Source: an uncultured delta proteobacterium (GTDB taxonomy: Bacteria; Desulfobacterota; Binatia; UBA9968). Taken from it: a stretch of 64,000 nt of DNA. The position numbers were made by a program, and so were the translations under genes. Location of the stretch: the NCBI GenBank assembly GCA_963804165.1, contig CAWDPO010000043.1, positions 32,001-96,000 on the forward strand, in the 5' to 3' direction. The notes below the pieces were generated by a model, which was given only the letters and a program-made list of their open reading frames with translations, did no database searches and was not told the origin of the DNA. This document shows, one piece after another, positions 1,271-51,634 of the stretch (positions are counted from its first letter, which is position 1; every line of letters begins with the position of its first letter).

Positions 1271-1445
1271 TCAGGCGCGTTTCGCCTCGACGCGGTAGTT
1301 GCGCATCATTCCCAGATCTTCATGCTCGAGGATGTGGCAGTGATACAGATAAAGCCCAGTGTGGTCCTCGAACTTCATGAGAACTTTGACGCGCTGGCCG
1401 GGCAGAACCAGCACCACATCTAGCCCCTCGTCGGTAAATCCCGCG
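1271..1445 (-). pseudogene. C-terminal remnant of a multicopper oxidase
   Basis: Manual translation gives ...VLVLPGQRVKVLMKFEDHTGLYLYHCHILEHEDLGMMRNYRVEAKRA*, containing the HCHxxxHxxxxM type-1/type-3 Cu motif; no N-terminal part is present. Confidence 0.8.
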
Positions 1446-1474: not shown

Positions 1475-1996
1475 CTAATGATGTGTAGCGTGGTCTCCGT
1501 GGTCGGAGAGCTGTGCTGAAAACCATTGATGGAGCGCCGTGACTAGCTTGGGGTCCTTTGCTTGGTAGCGAATCTGAGCGCCATCCGGCAAAGCTGAATA
1601 GCGAACATCGATTTTTTTCGCTCCTGACTTCAAATCGGCCAGGCCTGGCATATCCTCGCCATGAATTTTTGCCGGGTCAGAAAAATCTCCCTTACGAAAC
1701 TTATCTGACTCTTCTTTTAGGTGGGACTGTATTAATGCAATCTGTTTTTTATTCGAAGGGTCTTTAACGACTACCTTCTGCAGGCCGCCGTCTTCAAGCT
1801 TCTGAAATACATGGGTCGTTTGTTCGAGATCGAACGGCATCACCTTCGCGCCTTTTACAGCGACTTCCTTCTGGCGAGTTTGGGCGGGTAAGATCGCCGT
1901 GGCGAAAAGAACCACAAGCGCTGCGGTCGAAATAATCAGCGCGCCGCCGGTGATAAACGTGTGTGTTTGCTTGGAACAACTCTCGTTGATTTTCAT
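1475..1996 (-). CDS. Uncharacterised exported protein (MPFDLxxTTHxF...HGxDMPG family)
   Basis: Signal-peptide-like N-terminus, conserved-looking His/Met motifs and His-rich C-terminus. Confidence 0.55.
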   Translation of the reverse strand: MKINESCSKQTHTFITGGALIISTAALVVLFATAILPAQTRQKEVAVKGAKVMPFDLEQTTHVFQKLEDGGLQKVVVKDPSNKKQIALIQSHLKEESDKFRKGDFSDPAKIHGEDMPGLADLKSGAKKIDVRYSALPDGAQIRYQAKDPKLVTALHQWFSAQLSDHGDHATHH

Positions 1997-2160: not shown

Positions 2161-2442
2161 TTATTCATGGCCTGCTTTGCCTGCGTGATCTTTCATCGCA
2201 TCCCCTGCCTTGCCGTGGCTCTTCATGTCATGCCCAGCCTTGGCCATGTGATTCTTCATCATCTCATGATGCCCTGCCTTGCTCATGTGATTCTTCATCA
2301 TTTCATGATGGCCTGCCTTCATCGCGTGCCCGTCAGCTCCGTGCGTGTCATGCTCCGAACCGTGATCCAACTGGGCAACTGCCACGCCGGATAGAATCGT
2401 GAATGCACCCACTGCGAGACTCACGCCTAGAAATTTTCTCAC
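2161..2442 (-). CDS. Small exported His/Met-rich putative metal (Cu/Ag)-binding protein
   Basis: Signal peptide followed by KAGHHEMMKNHM repeats. Confidence 0.65.
   Translation of the reverse strand: MRKFLGVSLAVGAFTILSGVAVAQLDHGSEHDTHGADGHAMKAGHHEMMKNHMSKAGHHEMMKNHMAKAGHDMKSHGKAGDAMKDHAGKAGHE
2245..2319. repeat. 39-bp in-frame tandem repeat (about 2 copies, 13 aa unit)
   Basis: catgtgattcttcatcatYtcatgatg starts at 2245 and at 2284. Confidence 0.85.
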
Positions 2443-2764
2443 AGCTTCTCACCTCCCTTCTATAAGAGATCTCAACCGCTGATTAGACCACGCTCGATGC
2501 CAAATAGTTCTCTGAGGGAACTAAAAACCGTTGTGTTGACGCACTTCGAAAAAGGCGCGTAGCAGGTCTGTTCAATCATAGACGTAAGATGTGATCAAAA
2601 GGTTTACGCGATTACAATCGAATAAAGTTCTCAAATTGCTTTAGTGTGAAGGAAGTCTGACGGGAAGATCTCTAGCTCTTCGCGGAGCGGTAGAGCTTGG
2701 CTTTGTGGTGATCGGCAGCAAGAAAATTGAAGCGCCCGACGCGAAGAAGCGCGGACGCAAGGTG

Positions 2765-2808
2765 AAAACGGCAGAAGCGGCGGCATAACCCTCTGCTCCG
2801 CTACCTGC
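2765..2808 (-). terminator. Probable intrinsic terminator after the 2811-3032 ORF
   Basis: Minus-strand imperfect GC stem (gcaggtagcggagca...tgccgccgcttctgc) followed by a short T run, directly after the TAA at 2811. Confidence 0.4.
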
Positions 2809-2810
2809 TT

Positions 2811-3032
2811 TTAGACATTTGCCGATTGCTTGCTGGCGTCGTCAGGGAGTTCGGAAGCTTTGCCTTTTCCGAGCCGAACCAGCTCGTCGGTTGCGCTTGC
2901 TCAGGGTCAGCCACCTTTCATAAGCTTCGGCAACTTAAGCTTGAAAATCGCGGAGACGATGCCAGACGCTACACCTAGAGTGCCGGCAAGCACCACGGCA
3001 AGAGGACCGTATTGTTTCCTTTGGGTGCTCAT
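2811..3032 (-). CDS. Candidate 73-aa single-TM selenoprotein with GG-U-P-U-AS motif (not in ORF track)
   Basis: ATG overlaps the upstream stop (TAATG); TGA at 2909-2907 and 2903-2901; open for 29 codons to TAA 2811; hairpin cgagctg-GTT-cggctcg at 2886-2870. Confidence 0.55.
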
Positions 3033-3262
3033 TACGCCGCCCGTTGTTTCTTTACTTGCTCACGCAACTCTTCCAACTCGCGGCGAAGCCGATCTATCTC
3101 ATCGCTATCGCGGTGATGTGGCCCCATGCATATGAAACGACCGCCACTAGCTATAGTGCGCAGCACGACGACCACAACTAAAAAGCAGATCAGTAGCCCG
3201 ATTACAGGGAAGATCCACCAGAAACCCCACATCGGTCCCATCCATGGTCCAGGTCCCCACAT
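3032..3262 (-). CDS. Small membrane protein (G/W/M-rich N-terminus, 1 TM, coiled-coil tail; SHOCT-neighbour type)
   Basis: MWGPGPWMGPMWGFWWIFP, TM segment, EIDRLRRELEELREQV; RBS aggagg. Confidence 0.65.
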   Translation of the reverse strand: MWGPGPWMGPMWGFWWIFPVIGLLICFLVVVVVLRTIASGGRFICMGPHHRDSDEIDRLRRELEELREQVKKQRAA

Positions 3263-3448: not shown

Positions 3449-3649
3449 CTATTCAACGATGAAGCTCACCCACTTCTCGCCGTTGCGGTCGAAGGAGGTA
3501 ATACAATCGCAGTGCAGCGAAGAAGTATCGGCGCCGGTATCGAGCCTCGCCTCAACAAGGAGATTGCCCGGATGGATCTGAACCTTTTCCACCCATCCAA
3601 CCGTCGTTTTTTCACCGCCATCGACAGATGAAATCAAAGCAAAAGCCAT
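3449..3649 (-). pseudogene. Truncated RimK-associated aspartyl/'ATP-dependent Zn' protease family gene
   Basis: VGWVE...ARLDTGADTSSLH motif; stops at TAG after about 66 aa. Confidence 0.65.
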
Positions 3650-3704: not shown

Positions 3705-4259
3705 TCACAAACCTTTCTTCTCCAACCAAAAAAGTACGGCACCGAAAACTAAAACAACGGGCACAATCACTGGCCAGGGGTCCGTCCCGATCAAGGAAGG
3801 AATGGTCAGCTTGCCGTAATCGCCGAGCTTAAGAAGGTTATTTTGAATAAACGGATAGACTTCCGAGTAGAGACCGGCACCGATCAAAATACCGAGAACA
3901 CCGCGAAACAAACCGTCTAAGCGACCTTCGCCGAAGGCCGCGGCACAGGTGCCGGGTCAGAAGCCCAAGAGCAACATGCCGACGCCGAAGATCAGACCGC
4001 CGAGAATATTCGCGCCGAGCAGCGTCGGTTTGATGTGGAGATTGACCAAACCAAGATCGTGCAACGCGTAGACGCCGACCATGCCGACCAGGATCGCCGC
4101 GAACATGACTTTTTGCACCGTCAGATCGGTCCAACGGAAAAAGGACACGATCTTCTGATACTTGGTTACTTGTGCTTTTTGCAAAATAAAGCCAAACAGA
4201 ATTCCCGTGACGAGCCCGAGTACGAGGCGCGCCGGACCGGTAATTTCCAGTGGACCCAT
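3705..4259 (-). CDS. YeeE/YedE sulfur/selenium-compound transporter half B, 184 aa with in-frame UGA (Sec candidate at codon 101)
   Basis: GLIFGVGMLLLGF-TGA-PGTCAAAFGEGRLDG matches the family G(Y/F)CPGT motif; the two ORF-track pieces are in the same frame. Confidence 0.85.
3921..3941 (-). promoter_or_regulatory. bSECIS-like hairpin
   Basis: gcggccttc-GGC-gaaggtcgc, 9-bp stem with one G-U pair, starting 15 nt after the UGA at 3957-3959. Confidence 0.65.
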
Positions 4260-4261
4260 AA

Positions 4262-4783
4262 CTACACCCTCCGAAAGATCAGCCGCGCCATGATTGTTCC
4301 TGAAATCATCATTGCGATCAGAAAAATCCAACTGCTCACCGCCAATTGAAGCCCTCCACTGAGGGCGTGGCCGCTCGTTCAGCCATCGGCCAGTCGCGCG
4401 CCGAAACCGACGAAAATGCCACCGAGAATCCCGAGGACCCAACGCTGCGTGTTGCTTGTGCCGAACCGGCTCACCCACATGTCGGGAAGCGAGCCGCTAA
4501 ACGCAACGGCTTTTTGACTTAACCGCGCGGCCAGGTAGGCGCCGATGGGAATGCCGAGCACGAGCATAAATTGCCAGTCGACAATCGGCTTGACGTTATG
4601 CCAGTAAGCGTTCGCCGCCACATGATCCGGCGCGACCAGTCCAACCAGCATGCCAGCGGAGCGTGAGAAAGTAGTCGAAACCGACAGGTAGTAATTCGCG
4701 GTGTAGAACACAGCGATGTTAAGCAGGCCCAGCAGTAAACCTGCTTGCCACCACGACCATTCTTCTTTTTTGAGCCAGTTCAT
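4262..4783 (-). CDS. YeeE/YedE transporter half A, 173 aa with in-frame UGA (Sec candidate at codon 135)
   Basis: FGARLADG-TGA-TSGHALSGGLQLAVSSWIFL matches the family GCTSGH motif; frame stays open to TAG at 4262, next to the start of half B. Confidence 0.85.
4351..4366 (-). promoter_or_regulatory. bSECIS-like hairpin
   Basis: gccctc-AGTG-gagggc perfect 6-bp stem starting 12 nt after the UGA at 4379-4381. Confidence 0.65.
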
Positions 4784-4875: not shown

Positions 4876-5340
4876 CTACCGCCGCCGCCAGCCGCTCCAC
4901 ACTGGGAAGCCGCTGTCATCGCGCAGCTTCAAGACTTCATCTCCCTTCTTCACCTCCGCCGCGATGATCGCCGGTTTGCCCGCAAAAGTCGTTCTGGTGC
5001 CTTTCACCTCGACTTTGTCTTTCGGTTCGATCTTTACGTCTTGATTCTCGAGGTACCAACTCGGCCCAAGGTGCACAGAGACCGTTTCTTTATCGGTCTT
5101 CACGTTCATGTGAATTCCCGCTGCCATCCCTTTGTTCGGCGTGATCCGATCGATGCCGTCACTTCTCCGGAGATCGTTTCCGCCGCCTTTGGATCGTACA
5201 TTTTATTGTACTGTGTTCCCGGTCCCCAACCACCACTCCCTCGCCACATCATCCCCCCTCTTGGCTGCGCGAAGGACGACAAAGCCGCGAGCGAAATCGC
5301 GATTGCTCCGGCGCACAAAATTAAACCAAGTCTTCTTCAT
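4876..5340 (-). CDS. Exported OB-fold protein (MamS/MamX-like domain); frameshift near 5150
   Basis: Signal peptide, YDPKAAETISGEV...VSVHLGPSWYL...DKVEVKG...LRDDSGFPVW. Confidence 0.6.
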
Positions 5341-11102: not shown

Positions 11103-12487
11103 GTGGCGCAACTGGATCATGGGAACAGTCTGAAGTCTAAGCGCGAACGCGTGCTGATTCTCGGCGCGGCCGGGAGAGACTTTCACACGTTCAACGTTTG
11201 TTTTCGCAACGATCCGAACGTCGAGGTCGTCGCATTCACGGCCGCGCAAATTCCTGGGATCGAGAGCCGCCGATATCCCTCGTCATTAAGTGGCCCGCTT
11301 TATCCGGACGGCATCCCGATCTATCCGGAAGAAGATTTGGAAAAGCTCATCCGCGAGCAGCATGTTCATCAAGTGATCCTTGCCTACAGCGATCTTTCCC
11401 ATGTCGCCGTCATGCATCTCGCTTCGCGGGCCTTGGCCTGCGGCGCGGATTTTCGCCTCATCGGCCCGGATCGTAGCTCTCTTTCTTCAATCCGACCGGT
11501 AATCTCGGTTTGCGCCGTGCGCACTGGCTCCGGCAAAGACTCCGTGATCCGGCGAATCGCCGCGCTTTTGCGCGGGCGCAATCTACGCCCCGTTGTAGTG
11601 CGCCATCCGATGCCCTACGGCGATCTGGCTCTACAAGCCGTGCAGCGTTTTGCCACGGTTGAAGACTGTGACCGTCACCACTGCACGATTGAAGAACGCG
11701 AGGAGTACGAGCAACATATCAATGAAGGCGTCGTGCGTTTATGCCGGCGTCGATTACGCGCGCATCCTCGCGGCAGCCGAACAAGAAGCCGACGTCATTC
11801 TTTGGGACGGCGGCAATAATGATTGGTCATTTTTCAAATCGGATCTGGAGATTGTTCTGCTCGATCCGCATCGCGCCGGTCATGAGTTGCTCTATCATCC
11901 CGGCGAAACCAATTTTCGCCGGGCGCAAGTATTGATCGTCAACAAGATGGATTCGGCGCCGGTCGACGGCGTCGAGCAAGTCATGGCCAACGTAGCGGCG
12001 GTAAATCCGTCAGGCCACCGTGATTAAAGCGCGCTCAAATATTACGGTCGATAAGCCAGAGATCATCAGGGGCAAAAGAGTCCTGGTGATCGAGGATGGC
12101 CCGACCTTGACCCACGGCGAAATGGCCTACGGTTCCGGAACGATCGCGGCGCAACAGCATGGCGTCGCTGAAATCGTCGACCCCAAACCCCATGCCAAGG
12201 GAAGCTTGGTCGAGACCTTCAAAAAATTTCCTTGGGTCGGCAGAGCGCTCCCGGCCATGGGTTACTCCCCGGGGCAGCTCGAAGATCTCGCCGCGACCAT
12301 CCGTGCCACGCCGTGCGACAGCATCGTCGTGGCGAGCCCGGTCGATTTGGCCCGGCTCATTTCGCTGCCGAAGCCTTCCTGCCACGTATGCTACGATCTT
12401 GAAGAAATCAGCCGGCCGAATTTGTCCGGAGTTATGGAGGTCTTCTTGCGTCTCCAAGCACACCCGCTGCAAAGATCGAAGCGATGA
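11103..12487 (+). CDS. Cyclic 2,3-diphosphoglycerate synthase-like P-loop GTPase; two frameshifts (about 11735 and 12015)
   Basis: GAAGRDFH, VRTGSGK, RHPMPYG, TIEEREEYE, WDGGNND, EDGPTLTHG spread over three ORF pieces. Confidence 0.85.
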
Positions 12488-15030
12488 TCTCGGCAGCCAA
12501 TTTCGAAGCCACAAGCGGCCGTGGGCTCAGCAGTGAAGAAGCGCGGCAGAAGCTCGTCCGAGATGGCTACAATGAATTGCCCTCAGCAGCCCGGCACAGG
12601 ACACTCGTTATCGCGCTCAGGGTCGCGCGCGAGCCGATGTTTTTGCTGCTCATCTTCAGCACGCTGATCTATCTCATCCTCGGCGATGTGCGCGAGGCGT
12701 CGATTCTATCTCTCTCGTTAATCGTCATTTTCACCATCACCATTTTCCAAGAACGAAAAACCGAGCGCGCTCTGGAAGCCCTGCGCGACTTGTCGAGCCC
12801 GCGTGCCCTAGTGATCCGTGACGGCGAAGAAAAACGTATCGCGGGGAGGGAAGTCGTCTCCGATGACACGGTCATTCTCACCGAAGGCGACCGCGTTCCG
12901 GCCGATGCGGTGATCCTCTCCTGCAACGATCTCATGGTAGATGAGTCGCTGCTGACCGGCGAATCCATGCCGGTTCGCAAGATCGCGTGGGAGGGCGTTC
13001 AGCAGGTCACTCGGCCGGGAGGTGACGATCTGCCGTTTGTTTATTCCGGCACGATGCTTATCCAGGGTCGCGGCGTCGTGCGCGTCACCGCGACCGGAAC
13101 GCGAACCGAACTCGGCAAGATCGGCAAAGCGCTCCAATCCGTCGAAACCGACGAAACCTTCCTGCAAAAGAAATCCACCGTCATGATCCGCAACTTTGCC
13201 GCCGTCGGCCTGGCGCTGTGCGCGCTGGCTGTAGTGCTTTACGGCTTGAGCCGTGGCAATTGGCTCCAGGGCTTTTTGGTCGGTATCGCGCTGGCGATGT
13301 CGCTGCTTCCTGAAGAAATTCCGGTGGTGTTGACGGTCTTTCTCGCCATCGGCGCCTGGCGCATGTCACAAAAAAACGTCTTGACCCGGCGCATGCCGGC
13401 CATCGAAGCCCTCGGAGCCGCCACGGTGCTCTGCGTCGACAAAACAGGTACCCTGACACTCAACCGAATGTCCGTGAGCCGACTCTTCGCCGACGGTGAG
13501 TTTTACGAAGTCGATGAAGCTGAACCCCGCGCGCTGCCAGGGCGATTCCACGAGCTGGTGCGCTTTGCGGTGTTGGCCAGTGAAACCGAGCCCTTCGATC
13601 CCATGGAGAAAGCATTCATAGCGTTGGGCGATCGCTATCTCGATCCACGGGGAATAACGAGAAATGGACGCTAGTTCACGAGTATTCCATCAAACCGGAG
13701 TTGCTCGCGCTATCCCATGTCTGGAAGGCACCAAGACGCGACGAATACGTGATCGCCGCCAAAGGAGCGCCCGAGGCGGTCGCCGATCTCTGTCACTTCA
13801 GCGACGAGCTGATGACCGCACTGTCGGGACATGTCGATGCGATGGCCGGTAACGGCTTGCGTGTCCTCGCGGTGGCCAAGACGAGTTTCGCCGGTGAGCG
13901 CTGGCCAAAGAGTCAGCACGATTTTGATTTCGAATTTTTGGGTCTCATTGGCTTGGCCGACCCGCTTCGTCCCGAAGTTCCGAGCGCGATCAAAGAATGC
14001 CACGAAGCCGGCGTGAACGTCGTCATGATCACAGGGGATTATCCCGCCACCGCGCGGGCGATCGGTCGCAAGATCGATCTGCCGCTCGAACGGGAGCTTA
14101 TGATCGGCACCGACATTGACCGGCTATCTCAGGGGGAACTGCGCCGGCGCATCGCCGGAGCATCGATTTTTGCGCGCGTCCTGCCTGAACAAAAACTCGC
14201 CTTGGTGGAAGCCTTCAAAGCCAATGGTCAGGTCGTGGCGATGACCGGCGACGGAGTGAATGACGCGCCGGCGCTCAAAGCCGCCCATATCGGCATCGCC
14301 ATGGGCGGGCGCGGCACCGACGTGGCGCGTGAAGCCGCTTCGTTGGTGCTGCTCGACGACAATTTCGCCACTATCGTCGAAGCCATTCGGTCTGGCCGAC
14401 GGATTTTCGATAACATTCAAAAGGCGATGGGCTTTATTTTTTCCATTCATGTGCCGATCGCGGGCCTGGCGTTGCTGCCGTTGCTCCTCGATTGGCCTCT
14501 CATACTCACTCCGGTGCACATCGTGTTTCTTGAGTTAATCATCGATCCGGCTTGTTCCATCGCTTTCGAAGCCGAGCCCGCGGAGGTTAACGTGATGGAA
14601 CGCCCGCCGCGCAATCCAAACGCGCCACTTTTTGGCATGGGCCAGATCGTTTTTAGTCTATTCGAAGGATTCATCAGCTTGCTCGCCATACTTTTGGTGT
14701 TCGGCTTTTCTCTTTACCGCGGTTACGGCGAAGCCGAGGTGCGTATACTCACATTCGCGACCTTGGTGATCACAATGCTAGGACTCATCCTCGTCAATCG
14801 CTCACACTCGCAAAACCTGTGGAGCGCTCTGCGCTTGCCGAATCGCGCTGTGTGGTGGGTTGTCGGGGGAGCGTTAAGCTTTTCTCGCCGCAGTCATTTA
14901 CATTCCGCAAGCCCGCGAGATATTCCGCTTCGCCCCATTGCCGTGGACTGATTTGATGATTCCGATTGGCGCGGCTGGCCTCGCCGTTTTCTGTCTGGAG
15001 ATTGCCAAATTCTTGCGGCGCGAAGGATAA
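12484..15030 (+). CDS. Cation-transporting P-type ATPase (type II); frameshifts near 13670 and 14885
   Basis: TGES, PEE, DKTGTLT, KGAPE, TGD, GDGVNDAPALK. Confidence 0.9.
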
Positions 15031-15337: not shown

Positions 15338-17728
15338 ATGGCGCGAGAACCTATGCCAATTTCGTCTCTTTGGTTCCAAGGAGCGATGTTGACTTATATC
15401 CTCGGATTTACCGTTCTCGGCCTGCTCGCCTATCTGGTCTACCGCGACCAACCGCCGATGCCCGCAAGAGTCGTGGCGGGTGAAAAGATCGTGTTTGTTC
15501 GCGGCGATATTCTCGGCGGCATGAATGTCTTCCAGCGCTACGGATTGATGGAGTATGGCTCCGTGTACGGTCATGGGGCTTATCTGGGGCCTGATTTTAC
15601 CGCCGAGTACCTTCACAAGAGCGCCGAGTTTCTTGTCGCGGCTTATGCCGGCGTGCTGACAGGCGGCCTTTCGGCGCGCGAGCGGGTTGCGGCAGAGCTG
15701 CACAAAAATACCTACGATCCGAATGAAGATTCGCTCGTCTGGACTGCGCAAAGAGCAGCGGCACACAAAATGATGGAGGATTACTACCGCTCGATTTTTT
15801 CTGCAAAACAAACACGGGGCGGCGCACAAGCCGAATGGATTACGAATCCGGAAGATATTCGCAAACTCACCGCGTTCTTTGCTTGGACTGCTTGGACCGC
15901 GGCAGCCAATCGTCCGGGACACTCCTACTCATACACCAATAATTGGCCCCCGGAGCCGCTGGCGGGTAATTTTATTACCGCCGATGCCATTACCTGGAGC
16001 GTGATTTCCATCATCGGACTGTTGGGAGGGACCGGGCTCATCCTGTATTTTTTCGGCCGTTACGATTGGCTCGGCTGGAGTGAAACAGGGAGTAAACCGG
16101 TGCAATTCCGTTCCATCGATCAAGTGGCGGTTACGCCGGCACAGAGAGCCATTGTATGGTTCCTCTTCGTGTCTTCATTGCTGTTCGTCTTGCAAACTTT
16201 GACCGGTGGACTAATCGCGCACTATCGCGCCGAGCCGGAAGGATTTTTCGGCATCGATTTTTCAGCGATTCTGCCTTTTAACATCGCTCGCACCTGGCAC
16301 GTCCAGCTGGCAATTTTTTGGGTCTCGGCCTCCTACCTTGCAACCGGAATTTTCATCGTGCCCCTGATCGCGGGGCGCGAGCGTTCCGGCCAAGCGGCGC
16401 TTACAATCCTGCTTCTCATCGCTGTTGCGATTGTGGTCTTCGGCAGTCTCGCGGGCGAGTATGTCGGCGCACGCGGTTGGTTAGGCGAGGGATTGTGGTT
16501 TTGGCTGGGTCATCAGGGCTGGGAATATCTCGACCTCGGCAGGCTCTGGCAGATCCTGCTCGTCGTAGGTCTTTTCCTTTGGGTCTTTATATTGTTTCGC
16601 GGTCTGCGTGGGACGCTGCGCGAGCAACACTTCGGCAACATGCCCTGGTTGCTCTTCTACGCCGCCCTCGCGATTCCCGCCTTCTACGCCGTAGGTTTGC
16701 TTGCAAGCCCTCGTGAAGGGTTCGTAGTCAATGATTTCTGGCGCTTTTGGGTAGTGCATCTCTGGGTCGAAGATTTTCTCGAGCTATTTACGACAGTGGT
16801 CGTCGCTTACATGTTCGTGTTACTCGGAGTCGTGCGCCAAGCGACTGCCCTGCGCGTGATCTATTTAGATATTATTCTCTACTCTCTCGGCGGCGTCATC
16901 GGCACCATGCATCATCTGTATTTCAGCGGCACACCGGTGGCGCATCTCGCTCTCGGCGCGACTTTCTCTGCTATGGAGGTGATCCCGTTGCTGCTCCTGT
17001 CCCTCGAGGCCTGGTCATTTATAAAATCCGGGGAACAGAAGACCACCGAACGCTATCATCTCCACCGCTGGGCCGTCTGGTTTCTGGTGTCGGTGGGTGT
17101 GTGGAATTTTCTCGGCGCCGGGGTGTTTGGATTCCTAATCAATCTGCCGGTGGTAAGTTACTATGAAATCGGCACCGCGCTCACGGCCAATCACGGCCAC
17201 ACCGCGATGATGGGAGTTTATGGCATGCTGGCCGCCGGGCTATTGCTCTTCTGCTTGCGTTACTTGACCCGTCCCGAAAGGTGGAGCGATCGCGCGGCTA
17301 AAATATCTTTTTGGTCTTTGAATATCGGCTTGGCATGGATGGCATTTGTGAATCTTTTTCCGCTCGGCATTGTCCAGCTCTATTACGCCGTGGATATTGG
17401 CTACTGGTACGCGCGGAGTTTGGCGTTTATCAATTTGCCCTGGGTTAATGTTCTCGAATGGGCGCGCCTGCCCGGCGACGCTCTCTTTATAATCGGCGGG
17501 GCTTTGCCACTGGTATGGCTCTGCTGGCAGGCGCTGCGTTATCCGAACCCGCGTCGAATTGAAGCGGAGACCGAGTTGCCGCGGAGCTCTATACTTTCGA
17601 GTCCGACCGCGAGCAAGTTTAACCCAGCGAATCGCACGTTTCATCGGAGAGCAACGGCCGCTCTGGTACTGGGATGGCTACCCTTCGATGCGCGATTGTC
17701 CAGAGAGAACTTAATGCGGCAATCTTAA
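15338..17728 (+). CDS. norB: Quinol-dependent nitric oxide reductase (qNor); true C-terminus probably near 17600
   Basis: GHGAYLGPDFTA, YTNNWP, RTWHVQL, HLWVEDFLE, GTMHHLY, NHGH; heme and non-heme Fe His ligands intact. Confidence 0.93.
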   Translation: MAREPMPISSLWFQGAMLTYILGFTVLGLLAYLVYRDQPPMPARVVAGEKIVFVRGDILGGMNVFQRYGLMEYGSVYGHGAYLGPDFTAEYLHKSAEFLVAAYAGVLTGGLSARERVAAELHKNTYDPNEDSLVWTAQRAAAHKMMEDYYRSIFSAKQTRGGAQAEWITNPEDIRKLTAFFAWTAWTAAANRPGHSYSYTNNWPPEPLAGNFITADAITWSVISIIGLLGGTGLILYFFGRYDWLGWSETGSKPVQFRSIDQVAVTPAQRAIVWFLFVSSLLFVLQTLTGGLIAHYRAEPEGFFGIDFSAILPFNIARTWHVQLAIFWVSASYLATGIFIVPLIAGRERSGQAALTILLLIAVAIVVFGSLAGEYVGARGWLGEGLWFWLGHQGWEYLDLGRLWQILLVVGLFLWVFILFRGLRGTLREQHFGNMPWLLFYAALAIPAFYAVGLLASPREGFVVNDFWRFWVVHLWVEDFLELFTTVVVAYMFVLLGVVRQATALRVIYLDIILYSLGGVIGTMHHLYFSGTPVAHLALGATFSAMEVIPLLLLSLEAWSFIKSGEQKTTERYHLHRWAVWFLVSVGVWNFLGAGVFGFLINLPVVSYYEIGTALTANHGHTAMMGVYGMLAAGLLLFCLRYLTRPERWSDRAAKISFWSLNIGLAWMAFVNLFPLGIVQLYYAVDIGYWYARSLAFINLPWVNVLEWARLPGDALFIIGGALPLVWLCWQALRYPNPRRIEAETELPRSSILSSPTASKFNPANRTFHRRATAALVLGWLPFDARLSRENLMRQS

Positions 17729-22566: not shown

Positions 22567-23847
22567 TTACTTTGATTTTCTTTCCATTTGCCGGATTTTC
22601 AAAATCAAGCCCACTACTAGGGCGAAGATGATCAACGCGGAGATCGCCAAACCCTTGCGCCTGTACTGCAACTCATCGAGCGCTTTCAAGCCGCGCGCAT
22701 AGGCCTTCTCACTGCTTTTGAGTCCGGGCTCAACTTCTTTGTCCAGAATAGCCTGATCGAACCCGTGGATCGCGGCGCGCGCTTTAATCAGCGCGGTCTT
22801 GGCTTCGTTGAGCTCGAATAACGGTTGGCTGACCTCCATGCCGGCGTGTTCGGCATTTTTGAGCACGGCGAGAGATCGTTCGTAACCTGTCTTCAGCCGC
22901 TCAATGGACTTGAGCATACCCATCGCCAGCACTCCACCCGACGAGGCTGGCGGATGACAACCGGCGCACGCCGATTTATCGCCCGCGCTCAACATCGCAT
23001 CGCTAGTCTCGCTAATTGCGTGATTGCTATGACAAGTTGCGCAACCTGGAACACCCATTTGCGCAAAGATTTTGCCGTGCGGGCTCTTATTGAACAGGTC
23101 GGAATTCACCGCATGGCACTGGCCACAAACGTTCACAACCGAAGACACACCAGGCGGCGCCGCGCCGTGATTGCCGTGGCAATCGTTGCATGTCGGCGCC
23201 GAGAGATCGCTCTTTTGGGCGATCATCTTCCAATGCACGCTCTGTTTGTATTTCTCGACTTGGTCGGTCGGAATCTTGTAGGACGCCATGTAGGCTTTAT
23301 TGGCATGACATGAACCGCACGTATCGGCGACGCGCAATGGATGGACCGACGACCGAGAATCGTTGGGCGGCCTGATCGAATGGGGGACGTGGCAACTCGC
23401 GCAGGTCGCTACTTTCAGATCCTTTTGTTCCTTGAGTCTCTTGCCGTGAACCGATGTGTGATACTCGGCGACTTGGTCAACGCGCAACGACGGATTATAG
23501 CGCCGCATGAAATTGGCGTCCGAGTGGCACTTTCCGCAGACTTCGACAATTTGCACCGGGCTGGGCTTGCCGATGTAGCCCTTCTTCCGGTCCATCGCCT
23601 CCAAGCCCATGATGGCGCTATCGCCACCATGACAGTTCGCGCAGGTGAACCCTTTAGCGGCGTGGATATCAGATTTGTAATCTTCGGCCGGTTTGGTGAG
23701 ATTGGCAATGCCGAGGGCTAAATGGCAGGTCGCGCAGTTATCTTCGGGAGTCTTAATTTCCACGGCGAGCGCCGTTCCTGACATGGAAACGAAGATGATT
23801 AGGGCACAAGCCAGCACCGACGGCAATTTCGTAGCCCCCTCCATCAA
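22567..23847 (-). CDS. Nine-heme cytochrome c with C-terminal membrane anchor
   Basis: 9 CxxCH counted, signal peptide, coiled-coil and C-terminal TM. Confidence 0.9.
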   Translation of the reverse strand: MMEGATKLPSVLACALIIFVSMSGTALAVEIKTPEDNCATCHLALGIANLTKPAEDYKSDIHAAKGFTCANCHGGDSAIMGLEAMDRKKGYIGKPSPVQIVEVCGKCHSDANFMRRYNPSLRVDQVAEYHTSVHGKRLKEQKDLKVATCASCHVPHSIRPPNDSRSSVHPLRVADTCGSCHANKAYMASYKIPTDQVEKYKQSVHWKMIAQKSDLSAPTCNDCHGNHGAAPPGVSSVVNVCGQCHAVNSDLFNKSPHGKIFAQMGVPGCATCHSNHAISETSDAMLSAGDKSACAGCHPPASSGGVLAMGMLKSIERLKTGYERSLAVLKNAEHAGMEVSQPLFELNEAKTALIKARAAIHGFDQAILDKEVEPGLKSSEKAYARGLKALDELQYRRKGLAISALIIFALVVGLILKIRQMERKSK

Positions 23848-24080
23848 AATCGCCCGGAAGACGTCATAATAAAAACTAACTGACGAAACTGCTATCCGGT
23901 TGTTCGAGCTTGATCACAAGTAAGTGAAAGATTCTGCCGTGGTAATTCATGAGCGGCCGATTGTGCTGGAAAAGTTACCCGCGAGAGCGTGAAACGGATT
24001 CTCATCAGCGGGCCTTGACGCGTTAAGCGCTGACTAAAAGCCGTTGTTAGTTACCCACGCTGACGCAATCAAGATGAGCC

Positions 24081-26378
24081 TCAGAACTTGAGGCGTACCC
24101 CGAGGAAACCGATATGCGCTTGGTAGGAACCTTTGCCCCGGTCGCCGAGAAAAAACGATCGGCCGATGGAGTTATTGAAATTGGGACCTCCCCCCGGTGT
24201 TTCGACGTCGCCCATCCAGAGCCTCATGATGTCCACGCCGGCGTCCTTGCTGCTGTAGCTATTGAAATAGTAACCGAGCTTGAGCGCGACGTTCTTGTGA
24301 ATCATATATTCGGCGCGCGCCAAGAATTCATGCCAGCGATTGACGATCGTCGGATAATCGGTAGCTGGCACCACGCCGGAGTCACCCGATGCGGGGCTGT
24401 TGCCGCTCGAGTGCACCGCGCTGCTGCCGAACGAGAAGCCGTACTGCAGGCGCACATTAAGCAGATTCTTGATCACCTGCATGTCGGTACCGACCTTGAC
24501 GGTGTGAATCTCGTCGTTGCCCCGGCTGCGCCAAGTCGCCGCCGGACAATTTTCCGCGGTTCGAGCATCCAAATCAGGACACCCTCCCGCGCCGGTGTTA
24601 CGCGCAATCGCTTGAATTCTCCAATCAAAACGCTCCCAGTTGTAGTCGCCAAAAACTGTCGCCCACTCCAGGGGCGCATATACGAAGCCGATGGATGGCG
24701 CGTAGTCGATGTCCTTTTGAACGCCGATCACACTCCGAGGATAACGGTCATTGGTAAAATCAAAACCGCCGTGAAGCGTCAAGGTCTGCGTCGCCGAAAA
24801 CTGCGCAAAAGTTGTTAATCTGTCCCGCTGCCGGGCTGCCTCGTCAAATTTGCGCAATTCCTCCAGGCGGGCCAGTCGAACATCGTCCGGTGTTTCGCCA
24901 ATTTCCACTGCGGCATTACGCCCGGCGTCGTAGTTATGGGCGTCACGGAGGCCGCGCCTGTAACTGACCCGAAAAAGCGTCCATGTCGTCGGCCGAATAT
25001 CGAAAGTCGGCCCGAAGCTGTGTTCGTTTGAGTTCAACAGCTCACGGGCATACTCCCGGTGCATGCGTTCCCAGCCGTAGCCGAGCTTGGCAGTTAGCCA
25101 GCGCGTAAGCTTATAGGACGCATCGAAACCAATATTCTGTTTCGCATAAGAATACGGAAATGAATAATACTCGTTGCCGCTCGCCGATTCTTGATCGTTG
25201 ACGATTATGCCGTTCGGCAAAAGCACCCGTTTGCTGCGGTTGTCGAAGTCATAGTAACGATAGGAGGCCTTGAGCCCCACGTCCTTAAAGAAATCATTGA
25301 CCAAGGTGGCGTTGATCATCGTCGGCCGCACGTCGCCGTCAAGACTGCTCCGGCTGATTGTGGGCTGGGTCACCGCGGTGTTCACCGTAAAAGGTATGAA
25401 CTTATCGTTCTGCAATCTCCAACCGTAAGAAAATGCGCTCATGAAGTTGGTCTTGAACGGCAGGTTCGCGGTGCCGGTCATGGTGAACATATGCGCCTGA
25501 TTGCTCGGGTATAGGTCAAAACGGCCGCGGCACGGCCCCGTTCCCGGTGCGTACGTGGCCGAGTCCACACATCCGGAGCCAACCCCGGTGGTATTGAGCG
25601 GATTGTCCCAGGTCAGAGTACTGGTGTTGTTGTGGAAAAGCGACGCGTTGTATTTAAGTCCCAAAGTCCAGCCGTTCCCGGCGTACTCACCGCCGAGCTC
25701 GACGTTGTGGGTCTGGTAATCGATCGGTTCGACTAGCTCGGTAATATTGTAGTTGCCCGGACTCGGGCCGAAGTAGGCCCCGAAGGCACGGCCGCCAGCG
25801 GTATTTTGCGAACCGTAGCTGCCGGTGAAAGTCCAACCCGGGGTCGGCGTGTAGCGTAAGTTGAATTTAGCCAATCCATTATAGAGCTTAAGATCGACCG
25901 GCTGCGCGTTGGCGTTGACCCAGTCGCGCATGTTAGCGCCCGTCGTCCCGACGGGTTTCGACGACAGTGTATAGGTTCCTCCGTTCATGCTGAACGGCGT
26001 GCGCGCGTTATCGACGTTAAACAGATGGGGAATTTGGTCCCAAACAAACTCGAGATCCAAGAGGCCGTACCGGCCCGCGCGCAAGCGGTAGCTCTGATCG
26101 TCGCGGCCGGTTTTCAGCGACTCCAACTCCAGGTAGAAATCTTTTTTCTTGCTGTCGAGAAACAACTCGATCTGCGGCACGACGATTGTCTCAGGCAAGT
26201 CGCGGTATTCTTCAAGCTTGGTATCGCTGCCGCTTCTGTGGCTAGGCATGCCGCCCACTTCAGCGGAACCGCTAATTGTAAAGTCGCCCAAATCCACTTG
26301 GGCCGGGCTGGGCCCCACTAGAAATAAGAGCGTCGTCGCGCTCAAACTCAAAAGCAACACCGCTTTATTTCGTTTCAC
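24081..26378 (-). CDS. mtrB: MtrB/PioB/MtoB-family outer-membrane beta-barrel
   Basis: Signal peptide, EYRD, EPIDYQT, WDNP, YPSNQAH, terminal Phe; adjacent to a decaheme gene. Confidence 0.88.
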   Translation of the reverse strand: MKRNKAVLLLSLSATTLLFLVGPSPAQVDLGDFTISGSAEVGGMPSHRSGSDTKLEEYRDLPETIVVPQIELFLDSKKKDFYLELESLKTGRDDQSYRLRAGRYGLLDLEFVWDQIPHLFNVDNARTPFSMNGGTYTLSSKPVGTTGANMRDWVNANAQPVDLKLYNGLAKFNLRYTPTPGWTFTGSYGSQNTAGGRAFGAYFGPSPGNYNITELVEPIDYQTHNVELGGEYAGNGWTLGLKYNASLFHNNTSTLTWDNPLNTTGVGSGCVDSATYAPGTGPCRGRFDLYPSNQAHMFTMTGTANLPFKTNFMSAFSYGWRLQNDKFIPFTVNTAVTQPTISRSSLDGDVRPTMINATLVNDFFKDVGLKASYRYYDFDNRSKRVLLPNGIIVNDQESASGNEYYSFPYSYAKQNIGFDASYKLTRWLTAKLGYGWERMHREYARELLNSNEHSFGPTFDIRPTTWTLFRVSYRRGLRDAHNYDAGRNAAVEIGETPDDVRLARLEELRKFDEAARQRDRLTTFAQFSATQTLTLHGGFDFTNDRYPRSVIGVQKDIDYAPSIGFVYAPLEWATVFGDYNWERFDWRIQAIARNTGAGGCPDLDARTAENCPAATWRSRGNDEIHTVKVGTDMQVIKNLLNVRLQYGFSFGSSAVHSSGNSPASGDSGVVPATDYPTIVNRWHEFLARAEYMIHKNVALKLGYYFNSYSSKDAGVDIMRLWMGDVETPGGGPNFNNSIGRSFFLGDRGKGSYQAHIGFLGVRLKF

Positions 26379-26393
26379 AGCCGGCCTCCTTTC

Positions 26394-27365
26394 CTAGCGC
26401 GTATAGAACTTACCCGATGGATGATTGCTGCCATGAACCTGACTGTGACAGTTCGTACAGCTCCTATTGAAGGCAAAAACCGATGGCCCCACCGTCGGCG
26501 ATAGCGGGCGCAACGGCCGCGGCGTGGCTGGATGACGCGTAGCTATATGGCACTGCGTGCATAACCGCGGATCGGTCACTTTAAGTAACCGATCGTTGAC
26601 CGATCCGTGCGGTTCATGACAGTTCGTGCACCCTTCCATGACCGGCGGATGCTCCCATAGGAAGGGACCCCGTCTCTCGGCGTGGCAAGCGTAGCAATTA
26701 TCGTTGACGCTGGTTTGCTTAAGTTGCGCCGGATTGGGACTGCCATGCGGATTGTGGCAGTCGGAGCAGACGATCTTTCCTTCCCGCATGGGCATATGCG
26801 AGGAACGCATGAGCTGCGCCTTGCGCTGCAAATGGCACTGGCCGCACACTTCGATTTCCGCCCGGTTGACCCCGAACGGCGTTACGTCTGTCATCTTCGC
26901 CATCTGCTTGCCGCTGGTCTTCTCCATCAATGTATGGCAATTGACGCAGGCCAAACCGCGGTTGGCATGGGCGCTCGCTTTCCAATAGGTCTGGACACCG
27001 CGTTGATGGCAAGTTAGACACGGCTGGTTTTGCGCTTCCGCGGACTCGCCCGAGCCCTTGCGAAACGTGATCAACCCGCCCACGCCTTTGCCCCCTCCGG
27101 CAGCGACGTGGTTGCTGCCGGGCCCGTGACAATTCTCGCAAGCCCTTTTTTCCATCTCGTTACGCGGGTTGTGCAAGAACATTTTTCCCATGAGGGTGGT
27201 GGAAAATTTTTCGAACTGGGGCACGTGGCAAGCTTGACAGACTTCGTTGCCAACGTAGGTGGCAGGCTCTGGTTTTTTCGGCGCTTCCGGGGTTGCAGAC
27301 TGGGCTAAATACTCATGCGCCGTCAATGCGGCGATGAAAAGAATAGCGACAACCGACCGCTTCAT
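26394..27365 (-). CDS. mtrA: DmsE/MtrA/PioA/MtoA-family decaheme cytochrome c
   Basis: 10 CxxCH; CHNPHGS, RGPFLWEHPPV, CHSQVHGSNHPSG. Confidence 0.92.
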   Translation of the reverse strand: MKRSVVAILFIAALTAHEYLAQSATPEAPKKPEPATYVGNEVCQACHVPQFEKFSTTLMGKMFLHNPRNEMEKRACENCHGPGSNHVAAGGGKGVGGLITFRKGSGESAEAQNQPCLTCHQRGVQTYWKASAHANRGLACVNCHTLMEKTSGKQMAKMTDVTPFGVNRAEIEVCGQCHLQRKAQLMRSSHMPMREGKIVCSDCHNPHGSPNPAQLKQTSVNDNCYACHAERRGPFLWEHPPVMEGCTNCHEPHGSVNDRLLKVTDPRLCTQCHIATRHPATPRPLRPLSPTVGPSVFAFNRSCTNCHSQVHGSNHPSGKFYTR

Positions 27366-46200: not shown

Positions 46201-46769
46201 CGACGGTCACCACGCAGATCGCCAATGTGCTCTGCAAGCGCTCGTGGCGTAGCTCGCTCTTTTCAATTAACTTTTTGAACCCTGCGCGCCGCCAAGAAGC
46301 GCTGGAAGCGATTGCGACGTGGCGCCCGCCGCACTATACGGCGCGAGTGCGCATCGACTACCATGTGAAAGGGGCGACGGAATTTGACATGGCGCGCGCC
46401 TTTTTCGCGCTCGCGGGCGAGCTGATTGTCCTGCCGTTCCGATTCATTTGGCTGCTCTTGTTGCAATCGCTGACGCGCCTCGAGCGCCCGATCATCGTTC
46501 CGTGCACCACCTGGCTCGCGCGTTTTCTCGAACGCCACTACATTATCTTTAATTTCATCTCTAACCCGCTCATCGATCTTGGCATCTTGTTCGAGCTTGT
46601 GCTTTGCTATCTCTTCTTCTACACGTCGCTCGCCGATATCTACTACTTCGCGCCTGTACCGTGGCATGTCTATCTCTTCGCATTTCATGGGACGGTGGTG
46701 CTGTTCGCCTTCGAAGAGACAAAGAAATACTACCGGCGGAAAGGCTACAAATTAGAGTTTTTGGCATAG
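43251..46769 (+). CDS. P-type ATPase (Na,K/H,K type IIC-like) with N-terminal PTS EIIA domain
   Basis: GDGIAVPH (EIIA), DNSSLTGES, VANVPEGL, DKTGTLT, GDGVND, DVGTD. Confidence 0.9.
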   Translation: MIAERLEAAKIVFGLKGNLSEVIDILCRRSNLSDLAARFRSHKPDKGTERYSYLGDGIAVPHLRIDNLPAPELILGLSPEGLTFNNNKIHVVLLLATPADQPAEHLQLLQRVCSLLPAVRDELLAQRDAGRVLRLIARAEQQSALPTYLNLTQEQVGFELETDLGNGLSTAEASSRLAHYGRNVLQRVRHESWHLKLLRNLFSFFAVLLWIAALLCFVPGVDLPQLGIAILVVILVNGLFAFMQEYKSDRALEMLQQLIGQKCRVIRDGALSEIDAGELVPGDLIMLEEGDLVPADSRLLEAFEVEVDNSSLTGESTPARRYKSDQPVLISGKFLWIELPNIVFAGTSLLRGRARAVVFGTGMNSEVGKIANLTQDIQSEPSPLQKQLRGTVYAIAALAGGLGLVFLFLGWLVGGLTFLEAFVFFIGLFVANVPEGLLPTVTLSLAMGVQRMAKRHALVKSLPSVETLGCTTVICCDKTGTLTQNLMMANEVAVDGKFVEITGVGYRPRGEFLQDGKALSLDGISQWSTLRRLLDCAFICNNAKVEPSDADYRVIGDPTEGALICLAEKAGVRGTHQRLHLNPFESIRKRMSVVVKPYRQLEPTIYVKGAPVETLQQCDRIHWGDEVRSLTDSDRQRILAENDAMANRGLRVLAFAYRDGVELNGAPYTTTDVETSLVYLGLVALSDPVRPEVPEAIHACHTAGIRVIMVTGDYALTAASIGTQIGLGESAPMPIFTGAQVAEMADERLVKILTQGETIFARVAPEHKLRVVSILKQMGEIVAVTGDGVNDAPALKKADIGIAMGLRGNDVAKEASRMILTDDNFSSIVAAIEEGRAIFDNIKRFAAYVLNSNPQEMYPYIFWVLFPDMPLAMTIMGVLAVDVGTDLIPAMGLGIEPPEEGIMERPPRRRDEKLLSINFVLRSYFVHGTLLALSCYATYYYMGWVLGTWRPGKSLSAMPASPSGLQFAAASAAYLQTLTAYFFPTVTTQIANVLCKRSWRSSLFSINFLNPARRQEALEAIATWRPPHYTARVRIDYHVKGATEFDMARAFFALAGELIVLPFRFIWLLLLQSLTRLERPIIVPCTTWLARFLERHYIIFNFISNPLIDLGILFELVLCYLFFYTSLADIYYFAPVPWHVYLFAFHGTVVLFAFEETKKYYRRKGYKLEFLA

Positions 46770-47269
46770 CCAAAATGGTCGGCTGGCAAACGCTGCCCAT
46801 CTGAGGTCAATTTTCGGCGGACGGGCACCCGCCTCTGAGCGTTATTTTCCTTTTCCACCGGCACGACCAACACGGGACACGCCGCCCCTCTCAGGATTTT
46901 ATCGGTGACGCTGCCGATCAGCATTCGGGACAGCCCACTGCGGCCATGGGATGACATAACGATCAGATCGACGTGTTCGCTATCCGCGCAGTCAAGGATC
47001 GCCCCGTACGCTTCGCCGGCATCGACCACTTTGTGAATTCTTAGACCGCCGCTGACATCGGCGAGTTTTTCAGCGACAAACTTATCAAGCCGCTCTCTGT
47101 GGCGCTCCATCTCCTGCTTGTTGATGGTATTGGTTTCATCCAATAACACGACATTGAAGATGATCAGCTCCGCGCCGACCTCTTTGGCCAGTTGACACGC
47201 GTAACGCACTCCTGCAGACGAGAGCTCGGAAAAGTCCGTCGGTGCGAGAAGTTTTTTTAATGTAGCCAT
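46745..47269 (-). CDS. Universal stress protein
   Basis: USP motifs. Confidence 0.9.
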   Translation of the reverse strand: MATLKKLLAPTDFSELSSAGVRYACQLAKEVGAELIIFNVVLLDETNTINKQEMERHRERLDKFVAEKLADVSGGLRIHKVVDAGEAYGAILDCADSEHVDLIVMSSHGRSGLSRMLIGSVTDKILRGAACPVLVVPVEKENNAQRRVPVRRKLTSDGQRLPADHFGYAKNSNL

Positions 47270-47325
47270 ACGGTTCTCCCTTCTGTGTTCGGCTAATAAA
47301 TAGATCTCGACGCTGGCAGTGAAGA

Positions 47326-47812
47326 TTACAGTTTATAGCCGATCTTGCGTAGCAGCTCTTTGCGCCAGACGATGCCCGCATCATCTTCGATGCCCTGGCT
47401 CTTGCCGCCGTCGATGACACCCAGGATGCCGCGGCCTAAGATCGGTTTCCGCGATCACGACTTCCACCGGATTCGCCGTGGCGCAGAAGATGCGGCAAAC
47501 CTCGGGAACCATTTTAATCGTATTCAGCACGTTAACGGGGAAAAAGCCGGCGCCGAGAAACACAATGAAGCTGTGGCCGGCGGAAAGAGCGAGCGCGTTG
47601 CGCTTGGCCAAATCAATCATCGATTCCTCTGTCCCCGTCCAGCGAACCAGCAGCGCGCCCGAGGCTTCGCAGAAGGCGAGACCGAATTTGATGCCAGGAA
47701 CACTTTGCACCAACGCTTCGTGAATATCCTCGACAGTCTTGATGAAGTGGCTTTGGCCCAGGATAAAATTAACGTCGCCGGGCTTGTCGATTTTCACCGT
47801 CGTGAGTTGCAT
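47326..47812 (-). CDS. Adenosine-specific kinase family protein (frameshift near 47435)
   Basis: NFILGQSHFIKTVED...FCEASG...CATANP. Confidence 0.85.
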
Positions 47813-47921
47813 CGCGTCGCTCCTTCCAAACATACCGCCCCGATTGCCAGTGCAGAATCGGCGGAAGAATTGTCATCACACGCAACCAATTCGAACTGAT
47901 AGCGAATGCGGCGGTGGTGTT

Positions 47922-48795
47922 TCAAGCCGCCCGGATCAGTAGCACGGGATCGCGCGAGTGTTGGATGACTTTTTCCGCGACGCTGCCCAACACCCAGCGT
48001 CCGATTCCCGACCGCCCGTGAGTTGACATAGCGATCAAATTGTTCGGCGTTCTCAGGGCGATGTCGATGATCTCCCCGGCGGCGTCACCTTGGATGGCGG
48101 TTCCGATAACCCGCTCGAATCGGTCGGCGCGCAGTCCCGCGACTTTGCCCTCCAGGTATATCTCCGCCTCTTTTTTGAGTTCCTCACGATACACAGTCGG
48201 GCCCTGGGCGATCACGCCGTCGGCGAGGAGGTACGCGTCGGTCGGCAACGTGTAAGTGCGCAGGAGGTGAATCTCGAGCTTCAATGCCTTCGCCAGCGCG
48301 CAAACGTGCGGCAGAGTCTTTTCTGCCAGGCCGGAACCATCTAACGGTACAAAGGCCGTGTCCAGCCTGACCGGCGCCGCGGAGTCGGCGCCTTCGCTGG
48401 GGCGAATCAACAGCAGCGGATTCGCCGCGGTTTGAATCACTTTGCTGGCAACGCTGCCGATCAGCCAACGGCGCGGCCCCGACAATCCGTGCGTCGCCAT
48501 GGCGATGAGACAGGAAGGGTCAGCGCTGGCACGATCGATGATCACTTCCGCCGGCTTGCCGACCTCGACTGCTGTGGCGACCGGTACAGAAGAGGAGCGA
48601 AAATATTTCGCCGCGGTTTCTTCCAGGTACTGATCGTCCGGCTGAGGCGGGCGAAAAGGGCGGCCGCGCGTCCGGATCCGTAATGCGCAATAATTCCACA
48701 GGGGCGCGATACGCCTCGGCAATCACCCGCGCGTAGGGAAGGACCTGCTCGGAAAAATTTGAGCCATCCAACGGCACCAGCATTTTTTTGTACAT
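47922..48795 (-). CDS. Tandem-domain USP (frameshift)
   Basis: MYKKMLVPLDGS and two USP domains. Confidence 0.85.
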
Positions 48796-48826
48796 GCCCT
48801 TACTCCAAACCAAAACCAGCGGTTCG

Positions 48827-49732: not shown

Positions 49733-49759
49733 CCCGACCACCTCTCCCATCACCGTCGT

Positions 49760-50665: not shown

Positions 50666-50694
50666 GGCTCTTCGCTCCAAACGTGGCCGAATTG

Positions 50695-51608: not shown

Positions 51609-51634
51609 CACCATTACCTCCATTCGGGTCCAGA

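Follow-up and report, generated by a model that had tools for sequence, protein, structure and literature searches.

SaoC provides the precedent for a 7-bp SECIS with a GGU loop that follows a near-terminal selenocysteine (Sec) residue, as outlined in bioRxiv 10.1101/2022.07.06.499078. Two Sec residues separated by a single residue (UxU) have been predicted once, in a form of a rhodanese-related sulfurtransferase from an Olavius symbiont metagenome, according to the account in PMC1976440. Families with two Sec residues in a UxxU arrangement are listed in a 2026 selenoprotein review, the family table of which has no entry for UxU or UPU; such a family may yet be among those of Haft and Tolstoy 2025 (mSystems), the source for UXX-star. 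A Sec-for-Cys exchange is listed in a review table for the SO_0444 Cu/Zn efflux family (USC/CSC), and YeeE/YedE, with a GUxSG motif, appears among the tabulated selenoprotein families (PMC13188914, table). Cys homologues exist for nearly all accepted families, as stated in PMC13188914, and the rules for bacterial SECIS (bSECIS) elements given in the legend of its Fig. 2 comprise a loop of 3–9 nt with G in the first two loop positions, a stem of 4–16 bp, a distance of 16–37 nt past the UGA and a dG of ≤ −7.5 kcal/mol. In the literature searched, no small membrane protein carrying Sec-Pro-Sec was found.

Here we describe a micro-ORF in a 64-kb stretch of DNA from an uncultured delta proteobacterium (hereafter, the window), which is a candidate for a new small selenoprotein family. 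Judged from its sequence, the gene has about an even chance of encoding a 73-aa single-pass membrane protein with a Sec-Pro-Sec motif, for which the recoding itself would be of the ordinary bacterial kind.

The locus and its selenoprotein context

A split YeeE/YedE (TsuA-like) transporter is located at 4783..3708 on the minus strand of the window, and in each half one central Cys is replaced by UGA. The first half-gene (4265..4783, minus strand; Sulf_transp, PF04143, E 2.4e-24) contains an in-frame TGA at 4381..4379, which aligns with Cys293 in the GGC motif of the Spirochaeta thermophila YeeE, a protein of solved structure, and the second (3708..4259, minus strand; PF04143, E 2.1e-16) contains an in-frame TGA at 3959..3957, which aligns with Cys91 in the other G-G-C motif of the same protein. 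The homology goes on beyond the UGA in both half-genes, and the pair shows the combination that was looked for in this family, namely a Sulf_transp domain with a UGA at the conserved Cys of G-C-x-x-G. Both UGAs are followed by hairpins that satisfy the bSECIS rules: the hairpin for the UGA at 4381..4379 has 6 bp and an AGUG loop, 18 nt past the UGA, with a dG of −10.3 kcal/mol, and that for the UGA at 3959..3957 has 9 bp and a GGC loop, 24 nt past the UGA, with a dG of −13.1 kcal/mol. The presence of two YeeE/YedE genes with a UGA at a conserved Cys implies that the organism is probably able to insert Sec. No tRNA-Sec, and no tRNA of any kind, was identified within the 64-kb window, and SelA, SelB and SelD were absent among the 60 window ORFs scanned; this absence counts against the Sec reading of the micro-ORF, and the genes for the Sec machinery must lie elsewhere in the genome. 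TGA also serves as an ordinary stop codon at the end of 16 of the 30 Pfam-supported genes of the window, which rules out a general reassignment of UGA.

The YeeE/YedE half-genes sit 0.7 to 1.9 kb from the micro-ORF on the same strand, and the YeeE/YedE unit and the micro-protein unit are 445 nt apart, with a gene fragment between them. The micro-protein unit is itself flanked by two stubs, one Zn_protease/retropepsin-like and the other derived from a multicopper oxidase. The former (3649..3449, minus strand) covers the first 48 profile positions with an E-value of 2.3e-12, and the latter (1417..1271, minus strand) is a C-terminal stub of 48 aa (1417..1274) covering the last 43 profile positions (PF07731, E 2.6e-10). 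A secreted ORF with His/Met-rich repeats is located at 2442..2161 on the minus strand and belongs to no Pfam or NCBIfam family; the preliminary description of this DNA had placed a His/Met-rich gene and a multicopper-oxidase remnant close to the micro-ORF, and both were located, the latter by means of PF07731. A 173-aa protein with a His-rich end (1996..1475, minus strand) is likewise without a Pfam or NCBIfam family, and this protein and the product of 2442..2161 look like periplasmic copper-handling proteins.

Farther away, the window encodes an MtrB/PioB porin together with two multihaem cytochromes (22567..27365, minus strand), a NorB-like oxidase with a fused cytochrome c domain (15338..17728, plus strand) and a run of at least six universal-stress-protein (Usp) genes (46745..52066). 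A TGA at 49760, which joins two tandem-Usp genes in frame, was considered as a Sec site and rejected, since the two are just adjacent genes. Several genes in the window are split, including those for a P-type ATPase (12484..14951, plus strand), a TPP enzyme (55613..56476, plus strand), a Glu/Leu/Phe/Val dehydrogenase (57196..57937, plus strand), the E2 component of a 2-oxoacid dehydrogenase (62067..63277, minus strand) and a MamS-like protein (5318..4879, minus strand). This pattern suggests either an abundance of pseudogenes in the window or indels introduced by long-read assembly; hence, decay of the locus or indels from the assembly have to be borne in mind for the reading of the micro-ORF.

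The micro-ORF, its hairpin and its tail

The micro-ORF lies at 3032..2811 on the minus strand and consists of 41 codons, TGA-CCC-TGA, 29 further codons and TAA; with TGA read as U, it yields the 73-residue product that had been reported in the preliminary description. The 5′ part (2910..3032) encodes a basic N-terminus, one hydrophobic helix and a Lys-rich stretch leading to Gly-Gly. In the in-frame ORF reading, it is followed at 2901..2909 by the proposed Sec-Pro-Sec, in which U42 corresponds to TGA at 2909..2907, Pro43 to CCC at 2906..2904 and U44 to TGA at 2903..2901, and the reading frame stays open past both UGAs (codons 42 and 44) for 29 codons until the terminal TAA at 2813..2811. The start codon, an ATG at 3032..3030, overlaps by its A the TAA (3034..3032) that ends an upstream ORF of 76 aa (3035..3262, minus strand), and the resulting TAATG at 3034..3030 is the overlap noted in the preliminary description. 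An antisense ORF of 101 aa at 2830..3135 on the plus strand has a codon score of −10.8, by which it was ruled out as a real gene.

The main alternative, which we regard as unlikely, though not extremely so, is that the gene encodes a plain 41-aa membrane peptide. In this case, the first UGA would be the stop codon and the second either accidental or a reserve stop, and the hairpin and the open frame would be coincidental or belong to an untranslated RNA structure. TGA is the commonest stop codon here, and TGA-NNN-TGA is not a rare pattern in itself, occurring 39 times in the window as compared with about 29 expected; both observations agree with this alternative. Gene callers also end the protein at 41 aa in all 13 sequence variants, found on 25 contigs; however, they would cut a selenoprotein short in the same way.

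The candidate bSECIS hairpin, CGAGCUG-GUU-CGGCUCG, is located at 2870..2886 on the minus strand and has 7 bp, including one G-U, a GUU loop and a dG of −8.4 kcal/mol. Its loop begins 27 nt past the first UGA and 21 nt past the second, and its sequence and position agree with the single hairpin described earlier for the two UGAs; the spacings in the YeeE genes are 18 and 24 nt. The loop starts with GU, as compared with the AGU and GG starts in the two YeeE hairpins. The hairpin falls within all four published limits (loop, stem, spacing and energy), with an energy margin of just 0.9 kcal/mol over the −7.5 threshold. A scan of the window was performed with the published bSECIS rules, coded so that a contiguous stem and, at the loop start, G followed by G or U were required. 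Of the 1933 UGA triplets in the window, 37 (1.9%) have a qualifying hairpin under a strict loop rule, a count to which the four candidate Sec UGAs belong, and 81 (4.2%) under a looser one. No bSECIS-type hairpin was identified after any of 25 TGA stops of Pfam-supported genes in the window, whereas such hairpins are present at both of the nearby YeeE/YedE Sec sites. Thus, the rarity of the hairpin in the window and its fit to the bSECIS rules support the Sec reading. On the side of the plain peptide, the hairpin is marginal and the local folding is unremarkable: the hairpin does not appear in the MFE fold of a 63-nt piece, and folding of the whole region showed no extra stability over shuffled sequences (z = −0.66 and 0.06). 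A search of the whole window against Rfam at gathering thresholds gave no matches.

The hydrophilic tail of 29 codons (2814..2900, minus strand) continues in the same frame and is followed directly by the TAA. A codon log-odds score, trained on the 30 Pfam-supported genes of the window, gives the first 41 codons +13.0 bits in frame 0 and −30.8 and −22.4 bits in the other two frames. The tail scores +8.45 bits; among true in-frame windows of 29 codons (mean 11.8, sd 5.9 bits), this lies at the 26th percentile. The frame-0 score per codon goes from 0.32 ahead of the UGAs to 0.29 within the tail and −0.23 past the TAA, the gene average being 0.40; that the coding signal remains level through the tail and falls only past the TAA argues against a plain 41-aa peptide. 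By contrast, the tail score is equalled by 13% of open wrong-frame or antisense windows within genes and by 17% of open intergenic windows, which leaves room for the plain peptide; the corresponding value for open shuffles is 2.5%, and the chance of a 29-codon open frame behind any stop codon is about 1 in 4. Taken together, the codon scores give moderate support to translation running on to the TAA.

A stem-loop followed by CGUUUUC, which may be a weak intrinsic terminator, is located at 2764..2808 on the minus strand, with the stem itself at 2808..2771 and starting 3 nt past the TAA. A 91-nt piece containing this stem folds with −35.8 kcal/mol (z = −1.95). The earlier claim that a terminator-like stem follows the TAA, and not the UGAs, holds as far as the stem and the U run are concerned, but a simple consensus terminator scan made no call at this position. 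The location of the stem behind the TAA is a further point against the plain 41-aa peptide.

A second alternative, which we consider improbable, is a protein with a single Sec that ends with Gly-Gly-Sec-Pro, the second UGA acting as the stop codon and the SECIS lying in the 3′ untranslated region. This arrangement would resemble families in which Sec is one to three residues away from the C-terminus; SaoC, KCU-star and UXX-star are described examples of a terminal or near-terminal Sec with its SECIS past the stop codon. It would also agree with the poor conservation of the tail beyond the hairpin. However, the hairpin is better spaced for the second UGA, at 21 nt (compared with 18 and 24 nt at the YeeE sites), than for the first, at 27 nt, and a SECIS that works for the farther first UGA should therefore recode the better-spaced second UGA too. 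Moreover, the codon usage of the tail is gene-like, the tail is in frame in the 62-aa relatives described below, and the NCBIfam models of SaoC (NF040734), KCU-star (NF033934) and UXX-star (NF041114/NF041211) do not match the micro-protein; nor does that of the metal-binding UxxU proteins (NF041115).

Relatives of the micro-protein and of its partner

Relatives of the micro-protein form a tiny family that was seen solely in metagenome-derived protein sets. A word-indexed search of 5.8 billion protein clusters gave 5 matches among 8 candidates, an exhaustive phmmer search of 1.84 billion representatives (E up to 0.001) gave 4 matches, one of which was a spurious repeat protein, and a search with a 62-aa form as the query gave 2 matches among 4 candidates and nothing new. 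After cluster look-up, a total of 13 distinct 41-aa sequences was obtained, all ending at Gly41. Substitutions among them are conservative, and the hydrophobicity of the helix is kept. The two most distant forms (61% identity) have the same last seven pre-stop residues as the window; this invariance in distant forms indicates that the 41-aa part is a genuine gene under constraint, which is tightest beside the UGA. The name MtrF, given by one source to a 41-aa homologue (P0131), was set aside, there being no Pfam or NCBIfam match. Neither the read-through protein nor the 41-aa form belongs to a Pfam family, including CPC-type families such as P1B-ATPases and Mer transport proteins, to which the Pfam scan shows no homology, and the read-through protein (with C for U) matched no NCBIfam family at E up to 0.1. 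A genome scan with the micro-protein alignment produced 6 pattern matches, none of which was confirmed.

None of the relatives from the three protein searches has a residue, Cys or otherwise, aligned to the UGAs, and the CPC, UPC and CPU variants envisaged in the preliminary description were not present in the collections searched (5.8 billion clusters; 1.84 billion representatives). Every relative found either ends at the UGA or has lost the UGA segment. Since nearly all accepted selenoprotein families have Cys forms, their absence counts against the Sec reading and in favour of the plain peptide.

The relatives that have lost the segment are of two kinds. Proteins of 62 aa, contributed by three independent sources, comprise P0007 on 3 contigs and P0137 on 17. 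They follow frame 0 of the window for 32 residues and then its frame +2 across 16 codons around the UGAs, with 14 of 15 residues matching in the frame +2 segment and 7 of 9 at the start of the frame-0 tail, where Asp-Glu-Leu-Val-x-Leu-Gly-Lys stays in frame. This succession of frames (0, +2, 0) indicates that one base was inserted after codon 32 and another lost 47 nt farther on, two changes that bracket the UGAs and restore the tail frame. The WLTLS segment of P0137 is encoded by the TGA-CCC-TGA nucleotides in another frame; thus, the TGA-CCC-TGA string is not an error private to the window. Programmed frameshifting into the 62-aa frame was rejected, since the window contains no slippery sequence there and a TAA occurs in that frame right before the segment. 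The return of the 62-aa relatives to the tail frame speaks against a plain 41-aa peptide and hints that the tail belongs to the protein, although this is a single event and may be a coincidence. The tails of the window and of the 62-aa form diverge fast past Gly-Lys, as would suit a plain peptide. An Arg-to-Gln exchange in the 62-aa tail would convert the G-U pair of the hairpin into A-U, if it arose from CGG to CAG. The second kind is represented by P0003, found on one contig, in which an in-frame deletion of 150 nt (2918..2769) takes out the motif, the tail and the post-TAA stem. P0003 has the N-terminal variant found in the 62-aa lineage and yet follows the window frame up to Met38, which indicates that the window-type frame is older than the 62-aa frame. 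The motif has thus been lost in both of the forms that differ around it, the frameshifted 62-aa form and P0003, which counts against the Sec reading.

It is highly improbable, more so than the single-Sec protein, that the UGA-less 62-aa form is ancestral and that the window carries a frameshifted, truncated remnant of a decaying gene: the multicopper-oxidase stub, the Zn_protease fragment and the frameshifted MamS-like gene at this locus, the several split genes in the window and the abundance of the 62-aa form (20 contigs) agree with decay, but the 41-aa clade is more diverse than the 62-aa form (61 to 98% identity), its constant length and invariant last heptad in the window frame would be unexpected for a frameshift by-product, and the frame of P0003 points to the window frame as the ancestral one.

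The product of the partner gene upstream (3035..3262, minus strand) has 76 aa and spans the membrane once; its N-terminus is rich in Trp, Met, Gly and Pro, a conserved Cys-Met-Gly-Pro-His-His stretch lies past the helix, and its C-terminus is charged and helical. It belongs to no family in Pfam or NCBIfam, but at least 141 related protein clusters were found, one member of which is labelled as coming from a Binatia MAG, and their alignment shows an invariant helix and a nearly invariant Met-Cys-Met-Gly-x-His. The label MtrG, attached by one source to a member of the partner family, was not adopted, since nothing here backs that name. A genome scan with the partner alignment identified 17 loci in Binatia, Methylomirabilota, Rokubacteria and proteobacterial MAGs, the nearest relatives being in Binatia and Methylomirabilota MAGs. 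A recognisable micro-ORF was present at none of these 17 loci, which weighs against the di-selenocysteine reading and indicates that the micro-protein is a recent, lineage-restricted addition to an older gene. At one Binatia locus (L002), where the partner is 76% identical, there is a 10-codon stub, and the DNA homology stops at about window position 3022. Prediction of a complex between the 76-aa partner and the 41-aa form gave a score of 0.01, which is no verdict either way.

Other small genes were observed beside partner relatives. In a Methylomirabilia MAG (L003), a small hydrophobic ORF at 4619..4692 overlaps the partner stop codon as ATGA and runs off the end of the contig; this ORF may correspond, as a distant relative, to the micro-protein. 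The distant partner relatives at 12 further loci (L006–L017) are SHOCT-type proteins, and at 10 of the 12 (all except L007 and L011) a small metal-binding-like protein is encoded about 30–300 nt downstream, with a Cys-Pro-Met-His ... Cys-Pro-x-Cys-Gly-Met domain and a Met-rich C-terminal helix. These loci contain another pair of a small membrane protein and a small thiol-rich protein.

A proposed Sec-Pro-Sec protein and its comparison with known systems

The di-selenocysteine reading put forward in the preliminary description finds support in the nearby Sec genes, the hairpin, the coding-like tail and the 62-aa relatives, but not in any Cys homologue. We infer, for this protein, Sec insertion at either UGA, the use of one hairpin for both, a membrane topology, a partnership with the upstream protein and a role in metal or redox chemistry. 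The 73-aa protein would be made directly after, and probably together with, the 76-aa membrane protein. When a ribosome reaches UGA42, the hairpin 20 nt downstream would act as a bSECIS and recruit SelB with Sec-tRNA; past one Pro codon, the same hairpin, then 14 nt ahead, would serve UGA44. Translation would then cross the hairpin sequence and the short hydrophilic tail and end at the TAA. The truncated 41-aa peptide is probably also made, because two consecutive Sec insertions are inefficient.

The Sec-Pro-Sec motif would sit past the Lys-rich end of the helix, and the charge distribution, as assessed by eye, suggests that this is the cytoplasmic side. At this position, the pair would either bind a soft metal, Cu(I) for example, or alternate between the diselenide and selenol states, and may act jointly with the Cys-Met-Gly-Pro-His-His stretch of the partner. 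In the CPC motif of helix 6 of P1B-ATPases, the residue between the two ligands is Pro. The motif and the neighbouring genes suggest that UxU may be an analogue of the CPC metal motif, with a possible role in the handling of Cu or another soft metal.

A more far-reaching proposal, to which we give somewhat less than an even chance, is that this is an obligate-Sec family, in which the Sec-Pro-Sec pair is the sole functional group, one minimal hairpin decodes both UGAs, no Cys version exists in nature, and a sister lineage was freed from Sec by the double frameshift, which bypasses the UGAs and preserves the tail. Such a protein would rank with the smallest known selenoproteins. Searches for Cys/Sec pairs would miss a family of this kind for want of a Cys homologue, and small membrane peptides that are cut at a UGA may conceal more such genes. 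If the Sec-Pro-Sec protein exists, the locus would provide a compact natural test of one bacterial SECIS serving two UGAs six nucleotides apart; it would also place a diselenol site at the membrane beside Sec-containing YeeE/YedE halves and copper-related genes, and would suggest that an uncultured soil lineage handles soft metals or chalcogens by means of selenium. If not, the micro-ORF would be an ordinary gene for a 41-aa peptide.

Several described systems resemble the micro-ORF in part. As in the case of SaoC, KCU-star (DUF466) and UXX-star, the gene is called short at the UGA, it is linked to transport or metal genes, and a role of Sec as a metal ligand has been suggested; with SaoC (Cys-Sec-COOH), as outlined in its description, it also shares a candidate SECIS with a 7-bp stem and a 3-nt loop starting with G. 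The micro-ORF differs from these three in having two putative Sec residues split by Pro, a tail of 29 residues, no Cys forms and a membrane helix in place of a signal peptide or a soluble fold, and the NCBIfam scan (E up to 0.1) shows no sequence relationship to them. The CPC/CxC transporters (P1B-ATPases; SO_0444) have two chalcogen ligands one residue apart, as would the micro-protein, but their motifs are positioned within the transmembrane helices of large transporters, whereas the motif of the micro-ORF lies past the helix of a tiny protein that has no homology to them and in which metal binding is putative. The rhodanese-like UxU protein belongs, as a variant, to a large family of enzymes that has Cys homologues, whereas the micro-protein would be a membrane peptide of 73 aa that fits no known fold or family, but in its published account the rhodanese-like protein likewise has two predicted Sec residues one residue apart, presumably with one downstream SECIS. 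Finally, the YeeE/YedE proteins (TsuA-like, GUxSG) are multi-pass transporters with Cys homologues and a solved structure, to which the micro-protein has no homology, yet they share with it the locus, the strand, the kind of hairpin and, on the proposed reading, a Sec residue at the membrane.
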